Origin: a virus | Lineage: Duplodnaviria > Heunggongvirae > Uroviricota > Caudoviricetes | Reading direction: 5' to 3' (one strand) | Length of the DNA stretch: 22,540 bases | Virus record (IMG/VR): IMGVR_UViG_2526164690_000046 | Shown: positions 1 through 9,916 of the stretch, piece after piece | Numbering within the stretch: position 1 is the first letter of the stretch | How the letters are laid out: each line of letters opens with the position of its first letter | Translations under genes and position numbers: made by a program | The notes under the pieces: model-generated | What the model saw: the letters and a program-made list of their open reading frames with translations, nothing else | What the model was told of the DNA's origin: nothing | Databases searched by the model: none

Positions 1-1236
1 CTATGATAACCGCGCATTCAACATGGCTATCTGTTCGTCGTTCATGTCATCAATCCACATACCGTAAATTTCATACACCATCTGCGCAGTTTCATGCCCC
101 ATTTGGCTGGCTATAAATGCCGGGTTCGCTCCTGCCGTCAACAGCCAGCAGGCAAAAGTATGCCGCGTATGGTACGGATTACGGCGGCGAATACCAGCAC
201 GTTTTACTGCTGCATTCCACCTTGCCCCCAAACTGCTTACCGAGTAATAAGGTTTTTGTTTTCCGTTACACACCCTGGGCATGAAAACAAAATGCAGTTT
301 TTGCTTTTCGGTTCTGCCGTACTCCCGATGATAAAAGGTGATTTCGCTTTTGCGATGATGCCCGGTCAGTTTGTATTGCTCCTTCAGTGCTTCAAGAGCA
401 GGCTGCAGTAGTGTTACTGTCCGGATCCCGGCATTTGTTTTTGGGGGACCGAACATATCAAGTATCGTCAGGTTTCTTCTGACATTCACTATTCCCTTTT
501 CGAGATCCACATCCTCCCACGCCAGAGCTGCCAGTTCCCCGTGACGAAGTCCTGAGTAAACTGCAAATTTCCACATGTTCTGGCTCTGTCCTTTTTCACT
601 TTCCATTAATGCATTGAATTCTGTTTTAGATAACGGATCAGGCTTTATTCTGTTTCGCTGTAATTTTTTTACTCCTTCAAATGGTTTGGTTGATATAAAT
701 CCCGACTGATACGCAAAACGTAACAGCGAACAGAGCAGGGCGATATAGTTATCAACTGTGCGCACGGTTCTTCCTTTTTTGTTGGATCTTGGATTATCCA
801 GGTAAAGCGTTTCTCCATGCAGCAGTTCATTCCGGTAGTTTAAGATATCGCTATAACGAATATGTGATATCAGGGTACTTTCACAAATTATTATTCTGAG
901 TGTTTTTAATTGTGATTTCGTTTTCTTCATTGTGTTTGTTGTTAACTCTGTCTCTTTAATTTTTGTCCAGATATCACAAAGCTCTCCGAACGTTTTTATG
1001 ACTCTCGTTGTCACCATTTTTGCCCCAGTGCTGGACTGGGGAAAACGTCTTAAATACTCAAATTCACCGGAGTTTATTTCATGAACTATCAGCGCTCTTA
1101 AATTTCCGGCCTTTTTAATATTACTGTTTGTAATCTCCCAGCCTTTTAATGTTTCCCGACATCGTTTTCCTCGAAACATGAACCAGATGCGAATGTATCT
1201 ACCTCTAATCTCGACACCTGTTGGTAATTTAGACAT
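1..1236 (-). CDS. intR: Phage tyrosine integrase (Rac-prophage IntR type)
   Basis: 411-aa ORF from the track; tyrosine-recombinase-like C-terminal region (..RHGELAALAWEDV.., ..HTRHTFACWLL..); length equals what I recall for Rac IntR; start codon sits 2 nt from the stop of the adjacent xis-like gene. Confidence 0.85.
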   Translation of the reverse strand: MSKLPTGVEIRGRYIRIWFMFRGKRCRETLKGWEITNSNIKKAGNLRALIVHEINSGEFEYLRRFPQSSTGAKMVTTRVIKTFGELCDIWTKIKETELTTNTMKKTKSQLKTLRIIICESTLISHIRYSDILNYRNELLHGETLYLDNPRSNKKGRTVRTVDNYIALLCSLLRFAYQSGFISTKPFEGVKKLQRNRIKPDPLSKTEFNALMESEKGQSQNMWKFAVYSGLRHGELAALAWEDVDLEKGIVNVRRNLTILDMFGPPKTNAGIRTVTLLQPALEALKEQYKLTGHHRKSEITFYHREYGRTEKQKLHFVFMPRVCNGKQKPYYSVSSLGARWNAAVKRAGIRRRNPYHTRHTFACWLLTAGANPAFIASQMGHETAQMVYEIYGMWIDDMNDEQIAMLNARLS

Positions 1237-1237
1237 A

Positions 1238-1453
1238 TCATGAGTCTTTGATAAACTGATTTATCTTTGGATAGTTGTACCAGATAATCCCTCGTTTGCT
1301 GTCTGGCTTACCTAAAGGAGATACTCGTTTGAAGTGGAAGCCCTCCACCCAACAGTTCTGGCGGTATGCTTCAATTTGTCTGGCCCCCAGACCAGTGCGA
1401 AGCATCAGGCCGTATTCAACCATCCACTCTTCATTAAAGATTACTTGTGCCAT
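1238..1453 (-). CDS. ydaQ: Excisionase-like protein (YdaQ/XisR-like)
   Basis: Small ORF immediately upstream of int on the same strand; internal Met ([11 protein letters not shown]..) gives 71 aa, the recalled YdaQ length; the track ORF extends 8 codons further upstream (to 1477). Confidence 0.65.
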
Positions 1454-1552
1454 CGCATCACCTCTGGCAGGCGCCAATGTTAGACTGAAATTGACGCCCG
1501 ATGTTGATTATTAATAATCAGCTATGAAGTTTTAATTTGAATACAATGCAAT

Positions 1553-1813
1553 TCACGAGGACTGAAGTTTCTCGCAATTAAAATTTATCAGTTTTACTTT
1601 CTGCTCTCTGGAAACGCCTGCTTCTTTTTTACCTGAGAGCATTTTTTCGCATTCTGATTTCGTTAGTTTAGATTTTGAATATCTTGTCCAGTTAGTAGGA
1701 GTGCCACCTTCCTTTTCAATAGTGGCGGTAATTTTATACATGAACACCTCCATTATTATTTCCAGTGGTTCGTTTATTTCATCGTTCGAGTGCTTCTTTT
1801 TCACTTCCACCAT
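1553..1813 (-). CDS. ydaC: Small Rac-prophage protein (YdaC-like); start codon uncertain
   Basis: 86-aa track ORF between xis and ralR in the conserved Rac order; several in-frame Met codons are possible starts. Confidence 0.5.
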   Translation of the reverse strand: MVEVKKKHSNDEINEPLEIIMEVFMYKITATIEKEGGTPTNWTRYSKSKLTKSECEKMLSGKKEAGVSREQKVKLINFNCEKLQSS

Positions 1814-1928
1814 AACCGGTTCGGGATTCGCATCCGTTACACTTCGCTCGGTAATATCCTGAAATGGCTTTCACCGTTACTGATGGACAACCACAAAATG
1901 GACATGGTTTAACATTGTCATATCTCAT
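1734..1928 (-). pseudogene. ralR: Restriction-alleviation protein RalR/Lar-like gene interrupted by an in-frame TGA at codon 50
   Basis: Minus-strand ATG at 1928 reads MRYDNVKPCPFCGCPSVTVKAISGYYRAKCNGCESRTGYGGSEKEALER then TGA (plus-strand tca at 1779-1781); reading through continues in frame (NKRTTGNNNGGVHV) to TAA at 1734-1736, giving exactly 64 codons, the recalled RalR length; CxxC...CxxC zinc-ribbon motif. Confidence 0.5.
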
Positions 1929-1983
1929 AATTTTTCTCATAAAAATATTTCAAGTTGGCGGTGCATTACACCGCCAGGCTGAA

Positions 1984-2792
1984 TTATTCCTCTGAATTAT
2001 CGATTACACTGTATTCCCCGGTTAATACAGAGGAATCTGCAGGATCGATTGTCAGTGGTTCCTTTTCATCCATTGATACTGCACGCTGGATCTCAATTGA
2101 TACGGGCAGATATTTGAACAGGCGACGAATAGCCGTTTTCTTTGCCATTTCTTCCCAGTGAGTTACCCACGGCCCGTTATTACCAGCTTTACTCTGGCTG
2201 CGCACCAGCTCAATCTGTTTGCGCGTCATAACTTCAAACTGAGTACCTCCGTCTTTCAGTCTTGCGACAGCATAGACGTGGGTAACAGGGGCATCTTCGT
2301 TTTCTCCTGGGCGGTGTATTAACTTTTCATCAAGGCCAAATTCGAAATTAAACTCGTCACCTTCACGGACAACACGGGCTGACAGGCTGGCGATTTGACC
2401 TGAACGGCGAGCCAGATCAATCATGCCGCGATAGCCAATGATTAGCTGAACGTTTTTTTACCGCTCTTTTCGTTTTTATTACCAAAAGGCAGTAAATATG
2501 CATGACCGAGGGCGCTACCGGGCTCAAGTCCGAGCTGTGAACACTGTACGATTGCACTGACAAAACTCATAGTGTCACAGTTTCCTAACGCCGGAACTTT
2601 ACGAATTTCTGTGGTGGCGATACGGATCATACGTTCAGCCGTCATATGGCGTGGAAGAGCTGCTGCCAGTTGCTCTTTCATTGATGGCTGGTTAATAAAA
2701 CTAATCACGTCGTTATTTTTAATTGCTGCTGGTGCACGGTTTCCCTGAGTTTTTTGCAGATCGGCTTTTGCGATTGGTGGTTGCTTAGTCAT
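1984..2792 (-). pseudogene. recT: recT (ssDNA-annealing recombinase) disrupted by a -1 frameshift in a homopolymer run
   Basis: Two adjacent minus-strand ORFs in different frames (2442-2792 from [12 protein letters not shown].., and 1984-2424) together cover RecT; the N-terminal frame ends ..NEKSGKKTFS* while the C-terminal frame read upstream of its Met gives *KNVQLIIGYRGMIDL; the frames meet in a 7-T run at plus 2453-2459 (A7 on the coding strand), so A8 would restore one ORF. Confidence 0.8.
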
Positions 2793-5385
2793 TTGCATAT
2801 TCCTTAGCCCAGCGGGGCAGTGATAACGTCTTAATAGCTGGCCATTCATCGGTATTGAGGCAGTCAGCCAGGGTTCGCAGATTGCGGTGATATTCCAGCT
2901 GACCTGCCAGTTTTGCTTCTTCGCCCATCATGAAAATTTCAACCGGATAACGTCCGCATTCAATAGTTGTGCTGGCAACCAGAAAAACGAAAGTTGGCTG
3001 CACTCCAAACTGTGCTTCATAACCGTCACTGTAGAATGCATCCTGAACGTGATAGCGGTAGTCGTAATAAGCGGTTTTGAATCGTTGAATATCCGCCGTA
3101 GTTTTCACGTCCATGATCCAGTGAAATTCAGGGATAATTTTGTCCGGACGGCACCGACACAAAATTGCTGTTTCAGGATCTTCCCAGTAAATTGATGATT
3201 CAGCGTGTCCGGCGCTTTCAACAAGCCATTGCCCCAGCGGCAAAGCCATAACGCTCTGATACATGAGTTCAATTTTCCGGCCTTCTTCGGCAGTGATAAC
3301 CGTTTTTCCTGTGCTTGCGCATTCCCTCAGAAACGCTTTCTCTTCTTCTTTTCCGGAGTTTGTCCGGCGGTTAAATTCAGGTGCTACGATAAAGCGGTTA
3401 CTGAATTCTTCCGGCTCAAGTACCCGGCAGTGGAAAGCGGTTCCTAAATCGAGCGTTTTTGTCTTTGTGGTGTCCACGGGGGCATTTTTACGCCACAAAT
3501 ACAGTGCCGGAGTATCAGCAATGTCATCAAGCTGAGACTTACTGACACCGGGACCCGCGTGGTAATTCTCATTCGAAATTCCGTAATAAATACCTGGCTC
3601 TATGTCTTCTACGATTACGGGATCTGCGACTTCGCCAGTTTCATCACTGCAATCGCGATGCGGATCGCTGCCAGCATTCTCATTGTGCGGATGTTCAGCG
3701 CCTTCCATTTCCTCCGGATCATTTTCCTTAGCTTCAACCTGACTCTCTTCATCGAATGTTTCCTGGTATGTTGCGTCGCCCATCACCGCACCACAGTCAG
3801 GGCAGTTATCCCCGCCAGTCTGGCCGCAGGCATTGCAGGCTATTTCCGGTTCCTGTTGCACTACTGGCTCAGGTTGATTCATATCCGGGCTGGTTTTTTC
3901 CGTTTCTGGCTGGTTCTGGTACACACAATCGCGAGTCTGGATCCCCTTTACCCATTTCGGATCGTTCGGGTCGCTAATTCCGTCAACAAATTCACCACGT
4001 GATGCAGCAAGCAATTTATCGGCATCGACAGGATTTTTTGATGGAATGTTTTTCCGGGCTTCATGGAGTTCTGCCCGCAGTTCCTGATATTTCGCATCAA
4101 CAGAATTTACCTGTGACTGAGCATCCAGCGGCTGCGTGTCCTGATGATGTTCAGTTGCGTCCGGTTCCATTGTTTCAGCCTCTCCCTGTTCAACTGCCGT
4201 TGTTCCAGATGGTTGCGGTTTTTCTTCATAATCCTGTTTTCCTTCTTCTGTTACTCGCTGCGGCATCGGGGCAGAGGAGCGACCGCAGGCAATATCCACG
4301 ATTTCCGGATCAGGGTTGGCATGATCGGTTTCAGTCAGTACTTTGTTCAGATATTCAGTGACGTGCGCGGGGATGACCTCGATCCCAATTGGTGCTTCTT
4401 TTACGGACGCAACCACGATGGCGCGGGAATAATCCAGCCCGCCAGGCATGGTGATGAATTTGTCGCGGAAAACAGAAAAGGGCGGTTTATTTTCAGCGAT
4501 AATTTCCTCAATGCGTTTAGCGTGTGCCGGATGAAGGTTATAGATGTCCAGATCCATTGAACGGGCCAGTACGCCAGTGGCTACGTCCCGCGCCAGTGAC
4601 GTCAGATCGTGTACGAAACCTTCGCCGCGATCGGTGAGGTTTCCGCCGCCAGCATTAGCACCGGAAGCCGTGCGAGTGATGTGTGAAACACGATTACCCT
4701 TCATCCACTCTTTTGTCAGCAGTCCTCGATCGGTGTAGTCAGCGTTCAGGTATGCTTCGAAAAAAGCAGTTATCAGTCCCAGGTTTGAATTACCAGGATT
4801 AGGGAAAACTTTGTCAGTGTCACGAACCAGTTTGTGGAGTTCGCGAATTTCCAGCGGGTCGAGCAGGCTGGTTTTGTGGGAAACAGCCAGGGCAGTAACA
4901 GCCGGTAGTTCTTCAGCCCGAGCAATGTGTAATGCCTGGAGTCCGTCGCGTGAAACGTGCGTTACCGGTTTTTCGCTGCCGTGTTGAGCAAGCCAACGAA
5001 TGGGCAGTTCCTGGCCAGAAATTGGGAGTAGCATATTCTCCTCAATCTCAGTCATGTCTTCGCCGTTGACGTTGGTATTGCCTTGATAGTGAGCGTTGTC
5101 TGGTGCTGCTCCCGGTTTTAGTTCCCATGTCATGGAGTCTTTGCTGAGTTGATAGCGTTCACTCCAGGTAAAATCGATCTCACCTTCAGCGGGCAGGTCA
5201 TTAACGACAGGAAAATTCGTGGCAACAGCTTTAAAATAGCTGCTCAGTTTTTTACCTGACTTAACGATCAGGTAGTCCAGAGTGGCACAGGTCGATTCAA
5301 AATCGTTGCTTGCCCACAGGACGACGTCAGGTTCACCGGATGATTTTTTCGCTTTCCGTAACAGGAAGAGTGGTTTTGTGCTCAT
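2785..5385 (-). CDS. recE: Exodeoxyribonuclease VIII (RecE)
   Basis: 866-aa intact ORF; length and sequence consistent with recalled RecE; stop overlaps the recT start (ATGACTAA) as in the recET operon; GAGG SD before the start. Confidence 0.9.
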
Positions 5386-5486
5386 TGTTTTTTAACCTCA
5401 ACTCAGATTAAAATTCGTTTTGTTCAGTGAATGATCTTGCCGGATACACACTGTTCATAGCCTGCGCCATACGCAGGCTATTTCTT

Positions 5487-5762
5487 TCAGATTTCACCTT
5501 TTAATTTCATTGCAATTAGAGTTGCCAGAAATTCGGCTTTTTTTTCTGCGGGCAGATTCTTTCCGATATGCACCAGGCACATTTTTTTGACACCTTCATC
5601 AAGTGTTTTTACGTTGCCTGATGGACCATCGATATCAACCACAGTGAATGGGGTTTCTTTATTTTCTGTTTTAATTACGTAGCCAATGCGCTTTCCTTCC
5701 AGATTCACCTCGTGAACAATGTCATCGGTAGTTACAACAGTGGCTTCATAATTGGTAATCAT
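5487..5762 (-). CDS. racC: RacC-like small protein
   Basis: Internal Met of the track ORF gives 91 aa (MITNYEATVVTTDD..) with an AAGGAG SD just upstream (plus 5763-5775 reverse-complemented); position upstream of recE. Confidence 0.7.
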   Translation of the reverse strand: MITNYEATVVTTDDIVHEVNLEGKRIGYVIKTENKETPFTVVDIDGPSGNVKTLDEGVKKMCLVHIGKNLPAEKKAEFLATLIAMKLKGEI

Positions 5763-5836
5763 GTTTTTCTCCTTAATTAAGGTTGAGCGAATACCTGCCA
5801 TTTCTGGCATAAATTCAGTTTCGAATAGTCAATTAA

Positions 5837-6007
5837 TTAAAGTTCATGTGCCATCTGGTCTTTTTCGGCACAAGCTTCACTGCAATATTTTCTCGGTTCG
5901 TCTTTTGATAAAATCCCGTGCATGAAGTGAAGCATTCTTTCAATAGCTTTGCTTTCTTCAACGTCTTTTTTGCAAAGGTGGTAAGCACATTTTATTTTCT
6001 TAGTCAT
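5837..6007 (-). CDS. ydaE: Small Cys/His-rich protein (YdaE-like, 56 aa)
   Basis: Not in the ORF track (<60 aa); my translation: [56 protein letters not shown]; its ATG overlaps the kilR stop (ATGA), suggesting translational coupling. Confidence 0.65.
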   Translation of the reverse strand: MTKKIKCAYHLCKKDVEESKAIERMLHFMHGILSKDEPRKYCSEACAEKDQMAHEL

Positions 6008-6228
6008 CACCATGACTCCGCCTTTACAGGTAAACCATCACGACCGAGGAAGACTTTAATCATGCGGTCAGTAATGCATGTTTTTGTGGTCAGGTTACGA
6101 ATATATAGTTTTCGCTTTTTAATATTGTTTGCCGAGGCAATATATGTCCGGCCTTCATGAAGAACATAATCGCCAGGAGTCACACACTGACGTGGTATTT
6201 CATCAGTTCCGAAGTGATGTGCAATCAT
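6007..6228 (-). CDS. kilR: KilR-like cell-division inhibitor
   Basis: Internal Met gives 73 aa ([30 protein letters not shown]..); GGAG SD precedes; conserved position next to ydaE. Confidence 0.8.
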
Positions 6229-6648
6229 AATTATCTCCATTTTTACAAATGAACTTTGTTGATGCGGTGCCTGGTGCCTCCAGGTGACTGCAACCAGTTA
6301 ACAATTACAGTCGGCTTTCCCACCCAAACCAATAAGGACTAACATGACTTTTAACTGTGCCGCGTGCGCTTAGCCGCATTCACCGCATCACAAAATTCAC
6401 TTTAAAAAGGGCGGACATCAGTCGAACTTCAAGAAAAAACTGATGCCGCCAAGACTACACACAGCAGTGTTGTTATTCACAACCGGAGGCGCACTCCCAC
6501 CATTTAAATTTAACAGACAAGACCGACTCTTTATGGATACCGGAAATGCGCCTTCGTGTTGTGCCCGGTTTTATTTCACCACCTCCGGGCTTTGGTGGCC
6601 TCGGCTATACCCCTACAGCAAGAATATTGAATTAATCCAATAAATGGT

Positions 6649-6888
6649 TTAGCTGGTATTTTTGGCAAGCCAGCGACGGGCACCATTTTCGGTTTTAAAC
6701 GTTTTGCTTTTGGTATACGTCATTGCGGTGAACGTGCCGTCCTGGTTTGGAAACACGCCGTACACCAGAGATGCGTTGTTGCCAAGATCGATAGTATCCA
6801 TGCTGACCTCATTTCCCCTTAACGCCGGGGTAGCGGAACAAAAACCTGCTGCATAGTTATTAAAGTTGAACCCTGCCGTCATGTTCAT
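6649..6888 (-). CDS. Small prophage protein (possibly YdaF/YdaG-region homolog)
   Basis: 79-aa track ORF on the early-left strand between kilR and the repressor gene; identity from memory only. Confidence 0.45.
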   Translation of the reverse strand: MNMTAGFNFNNYAAGFCSATPALRGNEVSMDTIDLGNNASLVYGVFPNQDGTFTAMTYTKSKTFKTENGARRWLAKNTS

Positions 6889-7089
6889 ACGCCTCGGGCT
6901 GGCTACTTAACCCCTGACCACTGCCGGGTAACTCGAAGTATTGCCCTGCGTTCTGTGGGGCGGGGTGGGTTGGTAGGTATATGATGTACTTTGTGTTCAT
7001 TGATGTAAAGTACTTTAAGTACATTTTGTGTGTAAAAAAATGAGATGGGATAAAGTGAAGCACAAACCCGGAGGGGGACGCTACCGGAT

Positions 7090-7518
7090 TTATGCTGGTT
7101 TAAGAGGCTTTTTGTTTTTCTTTCGTGCTAGCTCTTCGTAAATTGCATTGTACTTCTGTTTTTTCTCCTCAAGAGTTTTTAAAAGTTCATCTGTCTCACT
7201 GTCAGGGAGCTCGTCCAGAAGGTCAATGATGATTTTTTGTCTTGGATTTAACTCCTGATAGAAACGTACCTGTCCACTTTCTTCTGTATCCTCTCCCAAA
7301 AGATAGGTTGGTGTTGTTCCAATGAGTGTTGCTAATTCCCTTAATTTCTCTCGGCGAGGAATTGTTTCGCCATTAAACCATTTGCTAACCGCTTTTGGTG
7401 TTAATTTCATTCGACGGGCAATTTCTGCCTGCCTTCCATGTTGTTCATAACCAGCGTTTTCACAGGCTAGCGCAAGCCTACTGGCGAACTCTTTACGCGC
7501 TTTATCTTCATGAACCAT
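7090..7518 (-). CDS. racR: HTH (XRE/CI-like) prophage repressor, RacR position
   Basis: 142-aa ORF with HTH segment (..QAEIARRMKLTPKAVSKWFNGETIPR..); divergent from the Cro-like ydaS gene across a 79-bp intergenic region. Confidence 0.65.
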   Translation of the reverse strand: MVHEDKARKEFASRLALACENAGYEQHGRQAEIARRMKLTPKAVSKWFNGETIPRREKLRELATLIGTTPTYLLGEDTEESGQVRFYQELNPRQKIIIDLLDELPDSETDELLKTLEEKKQKYNAIYEELARKKNKKPLKPA

Positions 7519-7538
7519 AAGTTCAATGATATTCGCTC

Positions 7539-7573
7539 TTGAATGTACTGTCAGTTCTGTTATAGCATGTACT
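7539..7573 (+). promoter_or_regulatory. Candidate rightward promoter and operators in the racR/ydaS divergent region
   Basis: TTGAAT (7539-7544), 16-bp spacer, TATAGC (7561-7566); two direct ATGTACT copies at 7543-7549 and 7567-7573 flank the -10. Confidence 0.4.
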
Positions 7574-7597
7574 CAAAGTTCACATTGTGAGGGTGAT

Positions 7598-7852
7598 ATG
7601 AACCAGAAAACACTTGAAGATGTAATCAAAACTGTTCGCGTTTCTGTTGTGGCCGACGTTTGTGGTGTCAGCCAAAGAGCAATCTACAAATGGATGGATA
7701 ACGGAAAATTGCCTCGCACAGAATATACCGGCGAAACAAATTACGCTGAAAAAATCGCTCATGCATCAAACGGATTATTTTCTGCTGATGTAATTTTAAC
7801 TATTGGCAGAAATAAAACTACTACGAAAAAGCTGATGGGAGTTGATTCATGA
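7598..7852 (+). CDS. ydaS: Cro/YdaS-like HTH protein
   Basis: ATG at 7598 preceded by GAGGG; HTH-like ..VADVCGVSQRAIYKWMDNGKLP..; divergent from the repressor gene; stop overlaps the ydaT start (ATGA). Confidence 0.65.
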   Translation: MNQKTLEDVIKTVRVSVVADVCGVSQRAIYKWMDNGKLPRTEYTGETNYAEKIAHASNGLFSADVILTIGRNKTTTKKLMGVDS

Positions 7853-8271
7853 AAATCAAGCATGAGCACATCGAGTCAGTGTTGTTAGCCCTGGCAGCCG
7901 AAAAAGGGCAGGCATGGGTAGCCAATGCCATTACTGAAGAATATCTGCGCCAGGGGGGCGGCGAATTGCCCCTGGTACCAGGCAAGGACTGGAATAATCA
8001 GCAGAATATCTATCACCGTTGGTTGAAAGGTGAAACGAAAACGCAAAGAGAAAAAATTCAGAAGCTGATCCCAGCAATTCTGGCAATCCTTCCGCGCGAG
8101 CTGCGTCACCGACTCTGCATCTTCGATACCCTGGAACGCCGTGCATTACTGGCGGCGCAGGAAGCGTTAAGTACGGCAATTGATGCGCATGATGATGCAG
8201 TCCAAGCCGTTTACCGGAAAGCGCATTTCAGCGGCGGCGGGTCTTCCGACGATTCTGTCATTGTTCATTAA
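7849..8271 (+). CDS. ydaT: YdaT-like protein (toxic when derepressed in Rac)
   Basis: 140-aa ORF, same length as recalled YdaT; coupled to ydaS. Confidence 0.7.
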   Translation: MKIKHEHIESVLLALAAEKGQAWVANAITEEYLRQGGGELPLVPGKDWNNQQNIYHRWLKGETKTQREKIQKLIPAILAILPRELRHRLCIFDTLERRALLAAQEALSTAIDAHDDAVQAVYRKAHFSGGGSSDDSVIVH

Positions 8272-8283
8272 GCAAAAGTTTCC

Positions 8284-9141
8284 ATGCTGTTTGTGCTTAT
8301 TCTAAGCCACCGGGCAGCATCATACGGGGCAATTATGGCCGCATTACCATACATGCAACTGTACATAGCTGATTACCTGGCTGACACCATGCATTTGTCA
8401 GCAGAGGAGCATGGTGCGTATTTGTTGCTGATGTTCAATTACTGGCAAACAGGAAAGCCAATACCTAAAAACAGGCTGGCAAAAATTGCCCGTCTGACTA
8501 ACGAGCGATGGGCTGATGTTGAACCATCCTTGCAGGAGTTTTTTTGCGATAACGGCGAGGAATGGGTGCATCTTCGGATTGAGGAAGATCTGGCATCAGT
8601 CAGGGAAAAATTAACCAAAAAATCAGCCGCAGGAAAAGCATCTGTTCAGGCCAGAAGAAGCAGAAAGGAAGCAGATGTTCAAACAAAACAAGAGAGAAAT
8701 TTAACAGGTGTTCAAACAGATGTTGAAGTGGTGTTTGAACATGATGTCAACACAAAGGCAACTAATAAAGATACAGATAAAGATCTAAAAACAGATCCCC
8801 CCCTAAATCCCCCCCGGGGGAATCGAGGTGTCAAAAAGTTTGACCCTCTGGATATTGCTTTGCCGAACTGGATTTCTGTCTCGCTTTGGCGTGAGTGGGT
8901 TGAATTTCGCCAGGCATTGCGAAAACCGATTCGAACGGAGCAGGGCGCTAACGGGGCGATACGGGAGCTGGAAAAATTCCGCCAGCAGGGTTTTTCACCT
9001 GAGCAGGTGATTCGACACAGCATCGCCAATGAATACCAGGGCTTGTTCGCGCCGAAAGGTGTTCGACCTGAGACGTTACTCCGACAGGTTAACACCGTCT
9101 CGTTACCGGATAGTGCGATCCCGCCAGGCTTCAGGGGGTAA
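8284..9141 (+). CDS. ydaU: Replication-initiation protein (YdaU-like, lambda O analogue)
   Basis: 285-aa ORF, the recalled YdaU length; sits directly upstream of the DnaC-like gene. Confidence 0.7.
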   Translation: MLFVLILSHRAASYGAIMAALPYMQLYIADYLADTMHLSAEEHGAYLLLMFNYWQTGKPIPKNRLAKIARLTNERWADVEPSLQEFFCDNGEEWVHLRIEEDLASVREKLTKKSAAGKASVQARRSRKEADVQTKQERNLTGVQTDVEVVFEHDVNTKATNKDTDKDLKTDPPLNPPRGNRGVKKFDPLDIALPNWISVSLWREWVEFRQALRKPIRTEQGANGAIRELEKFRQQGFSPEQVIRHSIANEYQGLFAPKGVRPETLLRQVNTVSLPDSAIPPGFRG

Positions 9142-9147
9142 CTGACC

Positions 9148-9894
9148 ATGAAAAATATTGCGACAGGCGACGTTCTTGAACGTATCCGCAGACTGGCCCC
9201 GTCACATGTAACCGCGCCATTCAAGACGGTAGCGGAGTGGCGCGAGTGGCAACTTTCCGAAGGCCAGAAACGTTGTGAGGAGATCAACCGTCAGAATCGT
9301 CAGTTGCGGGTGGAAAAAATTCTGAATCGCTCTGGCATCCAGCCATTGCACCGCAAATGCTCGTTTTCGAATTACCAGGTGCAGAACGAAGCGCAGCGAT
9401 ACGCGTTGAGTCAGGCGAAATCCATCGCTGATGAACTGATGACCGGGTGTACAAATTTTGCGTTCAGCGGAAAACCTGGTACCGGGAAGAACCACTTAGC
9501 GGCAGCTATCGGGAATCGCCTGCTGAAAGACGGTCAGACAGTGATTGTGGTTACCGTGGCTGATGTTATGAGTGCCCTGCACGCCAGCTATGACGATGGG
9601 CAGTCAGGCGAAAAATTTTTGCGGGAACTATGCGAAGTGGATCTGCTGGTTCTTGATGAAATTGGCATTCAGCGCGAGACGAAAAACGAGCAGGTGGTGC
9701 TGCACCAGATTGTTGATCGCCGGACAGCGTCGATGCGCAGCGTGGGGATGCTGACAAACCTGAACTATGAGGCCATGAAAACATTGCTCGGCGAGCGGAT
9801 TATGGATCGCATGACCATGAACGGCGGGCGATGGGTGAATTTTAACTGGGAGAGCTGGCGTCCGAATGTCGTCCAGCCAGGAATTGAGAAGTAA
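9148..9894 (+). CDS. ydaV: DnaC/IstB-like AAA+ helicase loader (YdaV-like)
   Basis: Walker [12 protein letters not shown] and Walker B LLVLDEIG in the 248-aa ORF. Confidence 0.85.
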
Positions 9895-9916
9895 TTTTTA
9901 CCGGGAGGAAATTTTT

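Follow-up and report, generated by a model that had tools for sequence, protein, structure and literature searches.

The toxin RalR is said to have formerly been named Lar, in work by King and Murray from 1995. With the antitoxin RalA it forms a type I toxin-antitoxin system of the Rac prophage of E. coli K-12 (Guo et al. 2014, PMC4041452). RalA represses translation of the toxin in an Hfq-dependent manner, and the same study describes a 16-nt complementarity between RalA and ralR, as found here at 1619-1634 and 1791-1806 (PMC4041452). Toxicity and non-specific DNase activity have been shown only for the 64-residue RalR of K-12, and the hok-family loci of the same strain are mostly inactive (PMC4041452).

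The window analyzed here, a 22,540-nt stretch of DNA, opens with the left end of a Rac-type prophage, where intR (1..1236), xisR, the DUF1187 gene, ralR, recT and recE all lie on the minus strand in the gene order of the Rac locus (intR-xisR-DUF1187-ralR-recT-recE). Truncated ralR sits between recT and the DUF1187/rcbA gene (Table 1). The original prediction described a ralR-like gene spanning 64 codons from ATG to TAA (1734-1928), with a TGA at codon 50 where TGG was expected. Both the coordinates and the codon count are exact, and the match to the NCBIfam model NF007260 (126.9 bits), together with the Rac synteny, identifies the gene as ralR. The reference length of 64 residues, as given in that prediction, agrees with that of K-12 RalR (WP_001317028.1, 195 nt).

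Translation starts at the ATG at 1928..1926, the start used by RefSeq, and reaches the minus-strand TGA at 1781..1779 (plus-strand TCA at 1779-1781). The TAA at 1736..1734 closes the old frame 14 sense codons past the TGA, giving an ancestral frame of 64 sense codons. The minus-strand translation from 1943 to 1731 is FMRKIMRYDNVKPCPFCGCPSVTVKAISGYYRAKCNGCESRTGYGGSEKEALER, stop, NKRTTGNNNGGVHV, stop and N, and the coding reading is MRYDNVKPCPFCGCPSVTVKAISGYYRAKCNGCESRTGYGGSEKEALER, stop, NKRTTGNNNGGVHV, stop. An alternative upstream ATG (1938-1940) gives a 53-residue reading of the truncated gene (MRKIM...). The 3' remnant is still open and identical to K-12. As had been proposed, truncation occurs downstream of the zinc-ribbon motif, with all four cysteine codons (9, 12, 30 and 33) preceding the stop. 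The same 49-residue product is annotated as WP_001443846.1 in strain E2865 and in the O111:H11 strain 88-19539.

Table 1. Coordinates of ralR, its neighbors and other RNA features in the window
Feature	Coordinates	Strand	Basis or remark
Premature stop TGA, codon 50 (ancestral TGG, Trp50)	1779..1781	-	Allele alignment
Truncated ralR CDS, 49 codons + TGA	1779..1928	-	Identical to RefSeq WP_001443846.1
Orphaned 3' remnant of the ralR frame, codons 51-64 NKRTTGNNNGGVHV + TAA (1734-1736)	1734..1778	-	
Zinc-ribbon core, Cys codons 9 (1902-1904), 12 (1893-1895), 30 (1839-1841), 33 (1830-1832)	1830..1904	-	All kept
16-nt RalA target inside ralR, codons 41-46, intact	1791..1806	-	
RalA antitoxin sRNA	1557..1735	+	RF02694, 225.1 bits against gathering 170, full length
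DUF1187 / RcbA-homologue CDS	1553..1741	-	
sok (adjoins hokD)	14156-14331		Rfam, above gathering score
STnc100	17952-18142		Rfam, above gathering score
AgvB	18144-18205	-	Rfam, above gathering score
isrK	21521-21597		Rfam, above gathering score
C4 antisense RNA	21619-21706		Rfam, above gathering score

The stop codon in ralR is genuine. The 451-nt stretch 1540-1990 was aligned with the K-12 allele and with six more, which go down to about 91% identity (O139, O145). TGG stands at codon 50 in all seven, also in those with about 91-95% identity, and each has a ralR annotated as 195 nt and encoding 64 residues. W50stop is therefore a derived G>A transition, and the reference RalR proteins of K-12 and the TGG alleles run to 64 residues rather than ending at this point. 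The changed base is plus-strand 1779, which is T in the window and C in K-12. Over the 451 nt, the window and K-12 share 99.1% DNA identity and differ at four sites: W50stop itself, a synonymous AGA>CGA change at ralR codon 49, a T-run shorter by one base just before the ralR start, and TGA for AGA at the end of the downstream DUF1187 gene. The coding-strand T-run, directly upstream of the ralR start codons (1941-1945), has five T residues in the TGA allele and six in K-12 and the other TGG alleles; the shorter run is linked to TGA in the sequences examined.

The closest complete genome to the window is that of the O111:H11 strain 88-19539. One substitution (17383) and eleven indels of a single base separate the two; the indels, most of which fall in homopolymer runs, lie at 2452, 7114, 16726, 17918, 17945, 18124, 18137, 18164, 18180, 22145 and 22530. 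Several of the indels lie in or near the STnc100/AgvB sRNA region. The pattern points to indel-prone sequencing behind one or other of these assemblies. At 2452, recT (1984..2849, minus strand) is split into two ORFs, with T7 in the window against T8 in 88-19539 and E2865; recT is intact in both of those genomes (810 nt), and the split is probably an assembly artefact and not a pseudogene. Assembly noise of this kind, eleven indels with one breaking recT, is what would speak for an error in the window over a true TGG codon in ralR. However, the change in ralR is a substitution and not an indel, as had been argued in calling it a point nonsense change and not a homopolymer artefact, and nearly all other differences from the nearest genome are single-base indels. 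The TGA is common to the window and 88-19539 and is thus not among their differences. The same base is also seen in 310 complete genomes, which come from many laboratories and platforms; at least 1,000 contigs and three phage records have it as well. A systematic error common to 310 complete genomes is not credible. The population counts and the nearest-genome comparison rule out assembly error, the probability of which we place close to nil, and resequencing is unnecessary because the TGA allele is fixed in hundreds of independent complete genomes.

The full-length window is matched by only two O111:H11 genomes; in most relatives (O26, O103 and others) the match is confined to 1-18538. Besides a second integrase, the region from about 18540 to 22540 carries fragments of the Icd-like and ash-family types and the isrK and C4 RNAs. 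This region resembles a P4-like satellite element that adjoins the Rac-like prophage.

The spread of the allele was assessed in 5,426 complete E. coli genomes using exact 30-mers centered on the site, such that any 28-nt seed word has to span it. The CGA-TGA haplotype occurs in 310 of these genomes, CGA-TGG in 123 and AGA-TGG in 1,199, and AGA-TGA in none (0 of 5,426). Recurrent TGA on the K-12-like AGA background is thus absent from complete genomes, leaving no evidence of convergent inactivation. The TGA allele accounts for about 16% of ralR-carrying complete genomes. Its carriers include O157:H7 (86-24, TW14588, ATCC 43890 and ATCC 43894), O55:H7, O26, O111:H8, O111:H11 and O103, as well as many non-STEC isolates. 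Of the 1,922 complete genomes that match over the 451 nt, about a sixth do so at 100% identity; this identity extends across serotypes and nearly all 310 TGA copies share it. The exact 49-residue protein is found on at least 1,000 contigs of a large protein collection, and three deposited phage records carry the same 451-nt sequence, including the TGA.

Several 49-residue RalR variants carry an additional missense change (P0011, P0022 and P0023; P15R, N5D and A21S), each on few contigs. The N5D, A21S and P15R forms probably derive from the same TGA allele. More divergent TGG alleles have N5D too, and recombination or a second origin may lie behind the missense variants.

Truncation at residue 49 shortens the match to all three family models, although each cut-off is still passed. 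For PF14354 (Lar_restr_allev, gathering 28.6), the 64-residue form aligns over residues 5-54 with 53.5 bits and the 49-residue form over residues 5-48 with 39 bits. The TIGR03655 score falls from 55.3 to 40.3 bits, marginally above its cut-off of 39.6. For the RalR equivalog NF007260 the score falls from 166 to 126.9 bits (cut-off 113), with the 49-residue product spanning profile positions 1-49 of 64 only; on the Lar family profile (PF14354 / TIGR03655) it covers only positions 2-52 of 58. The four-cysteine zinc ribbon (C-P-F-C ... C-x-x-C), whose columns are invariant or nearly so in the Lar family, is present in the short product. The C-terminal W-N-x-R motif of the family is deleted by the TGA.

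A HMMER search with a 64-residue representative returned 1,690 family representatives at E ≤ 0.001, and the matches almost always reach query residues 53-55. Conservation was counted in 224 Lar domains that were aligned from the best 144 of the 1,690 representatives, these 144 sharing less than 50% identity among themselves. W50 is present in 224 of 224 domains, N51 in 214 of 224 and R53 in 189 of 208, counts that are somewhat biased, as phmmer-derived values, toward domains containing the W-N-x-R motif. W50 equals or exceeds the zinc-ribbon cysteines in the same domains (223, 223, 214 and 219 of 224), while RalR positions 55-64 are mostly absent from them. W50 and N51 are also invariant in a separate MAFFT alignment of 58 single-domain members. 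An AlphaFold2 model of a 64-residue homologue (mean pLDDT 78) shows strands over residues 17-22 and 25-30 and a single helix over 43-54, followed by a disordered tail (55-64). With the helix predicted at 43-54, the stop would therefore cut the sole helix after 7 of its 12 residues and remove the most conserved motif of the family; the other ten lost residues (55-64) are probably dispensable. K-12 RalR lost its toxicity through non-synonymous changes in codons 41-46, where this helix begins (PMC4041452). Among solved structures, a sequence search matched only CbpD, at chance level, and Foldseek against the PDB found no significant neighbor, its weak zinc-ribbon matches (Elf1/ELOF1, RPC11 and eIF2-beta) including none that is nuclease-like. 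Structural comparison thus shed no light on the mechanism.

The RalA gene adjoins ralR in the opposite orientation and is identical to that of K-12 over 179 of 179 positions. Its pairing segment (1619-1634) matches the ralR target at 14 of 16 positions, 11 of them contiguous, in agreement with the published pairing (PMC4041452), and 9 nt separate the target from the TGA. With both the RalA gene and its target site intact, RalA regulation should thus be untouched. RalA stays constrained in any case, because it is antisense to the DUF1187/rcbA gene. A promoter and terminator scan around ralR gave nothing above shuffle expectation.

There is an 8-nt overlap (ATGTATAA) between the DUF1187 ATG (1739-1741) and the ancestral ralR stop, and translation of truncated ralR now ends 37 nt upstream of that ATG. 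This arrangement points to a possible loss of the translational coupling between ralR and DUF1187 that the stop/start overlap of full-length alleles would allow. The DUF1187 gene has a Shine-Dalgarno sequence of its own, GGAGGTG. It stops at a TGA (1553-1555) after 62 residues, while the AGA of K-12 leads to a 69-residue RcbA; this SNP is located 2 nt before the 5' end of RalA. Two rare database proteins, P0012 and P0015, are RalR::DUF1187 fusions, and the junction of P0012 (SEKEA|GVSREQ) coincides exactly with the pair of 16-nt direct repeats, 172 nt apart, through which RalA and ralR pair. The repeats (1619-1634 and 1791-1806) apparently double as a deletion hotspot that fuses ralR and DUF1187 in frame.

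The TGG>TGA change (Trp50>stop) is best read as a genuine, heritable nonsense mutation in ralR, which encodes the toxin in the RalR/RalA type I pair of Rac-type prophages. The TGA would have arisen once, on a CGA(Arg49)-TGG background, and the allele now resides in the Rac-like prophage of O157:H7, O55:H7, O26, O111, O103 and other E. coli. Translation would end after residue 49, keeping the zinc ribbon and losing half of the helix, the W-N-x-R motif and the disordered tail. RalR activity would be lost or severely weakened, leaving a decaying toxin gene beside an intact RalA sRNA. Overall we consider it likely that W50stop is a genuine, single-origin nonsense allele of ralR that probably inactivates or weakens the toxin and leaves the antitoxin behind. 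Conservation and the structural model make loss or strong weakening of activity in the 49-residue form probable. Against loss of function, the truncated product retains the zinc ribbon and 7 of the 12 residues of the helix and still passes the NF007260 cut-off. No further decay is seen in the TGA allele, as nearly every one of the 310 copies is 100% identical over 451 nt, and for this reason relaxed selection on it is not demonstrable. Its high frequency could equally reflect an allele that is tolerated, neutral or even advantageous.

The 49-residue protein might instead be a functional short form in which the zinc ribbon alone is active (toxicity, DNase or Lar-type restriction alleviation), with its strength altered or its functions separated. 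The product clears both the RalR equivalog and the Lar-family thresholds, the allele is common and occurs in deposited phage records, and residues 55-64 are unconserved and predicted to be disordered, so that most of the lost length is probably dispensable. However, the five residues that matter (W50-T54) include the only non-cysteine residue that is 100% invariant in the family, the tryptophan being lacking from 0 of 224 aligned Lar domains, and the stop falls in the middle of the predicted helix. Toxicity is also abolished by mutations in the neighboring codons 41-46 (PMC4041452), and on balance we regard a functional short form as unlikely.

Another explanation is that UGA is recoded, by selenocysteine insertion or programmed frameshifting, or read through by tRNA-Trp, supplying a deliberate low dose of wild-type RalR. 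UGA is leaky in E. coli, with near-cognate reading by tRNA-Trp expected at about a percent or less. Such reading would restore exactly the ancestral tryptophan, and the 14 downstream codons and TAA are intact and identical to K-12. That the downstream frame is intact is explained by the youth of the TGA allele, the whole 451 nt being invariant among carriers. No hairpin was found in the 32 nt after the UGA: when the 63 nt from ralR codon 49 onwards were folded against 200 shuffles, the MFE z was 0.34 and 118 of the 200 shuffles folded at least as well. The SECIS hairpin directly 3' of UGA that marks bacterial selenoproteins is therefore lacking. An Rfam scan of 1500-2000 gave no SECIS or recoding element at E ≤ 10, RalA being the only relevant match, and the actual context, CGA UGA AAU, is neither slippery nor of the RF2 type (CUU-UGA-C). 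With neither a downstream hairpin nor an Rfam match, selenocysteine and other recoding were ruled out, and programmed recoding or deliberate read-through as a whole appears highly unlikely.

It is also quite improbable that W50stop is not simply dead, either through tRNA-Trp reading that yields about a hundredth of the wild-type RalR dose or through a 49-residue ribbon that keeps one activity. If read-through were true, EHEC-type Rac prophages would carry a dose-attenuated DNase toxin under RalA control, and spread to about 16% of ralR-carrying complete genomes would reflect selection for attenuation. If one activity were kept, the 49-residue zinc ribbon would separate restriction alleviation from DNase toxicity.

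Returning to the nonsense allele favored here, it is already catalogued in RefSeq and UniRef under the RalR/Lar name: NCBI lists the exact 49-residue protein as RalR (MULTISPECIES) and UniRef as Lar family. PGAP names WP_001443846.1 'endodeoxyribonuclease toxin RalR' and gives it no internal-stop or pseudogene flag, because the product clears NF007260 (126.9 against 113 bits). A literature search found no paper on a truncated ralR allele or on the role of the Lar C-terminus. The in-frame stop is a true lineage marker of the Rac-like prophage of O157:H7/O26/O111/O103 E. coli and is not to be "corrected". Counts of RalR/RalA in pathogenic E. coli probably overstate functional systems, because the 49-residue product is named RalR toxin yet lacks the invariant W-N-x-R. 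Results obtained with K-12 RalR (toxicity, fosfomycin response) may not transfer to O157:H7/O26/O111/O103 pathogens. By itself, W50stop in ralR raises no new biological question.

Compared with the RalR/RalA system of K-12, the locus has the same position, the same synteny (intR-xisR-DUF1187/rcbA-ralR-recT-recE), the same RalA, the same 16-nt pairing sites and the same RalR residues 1-49. It differs in codon 50, which is TGA in the window and limits the protein to 49 residues against 64 in K-12; the toxin frame, intact in K-12, is thus interrupted at codon 50 of 64. With the Lar family (PF14354, TIGR03655) the 49-residue product shares the CPFCG...C..C zinc ribbon and scores above threshold, but it is without the C-terminal W-N-x-R that is invariant or nearly so in the family. 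Inactivated hok loci offer a parallel, as the toxin frame is disrupted while the gene for the antisense or antitoxin RNA persists. Disruptions of hok loci are due to insertion sequences and rearrangements, whereas the lesion in ralR is a single nonsense substitution, and RalA also overlaps another protein-coding gene.
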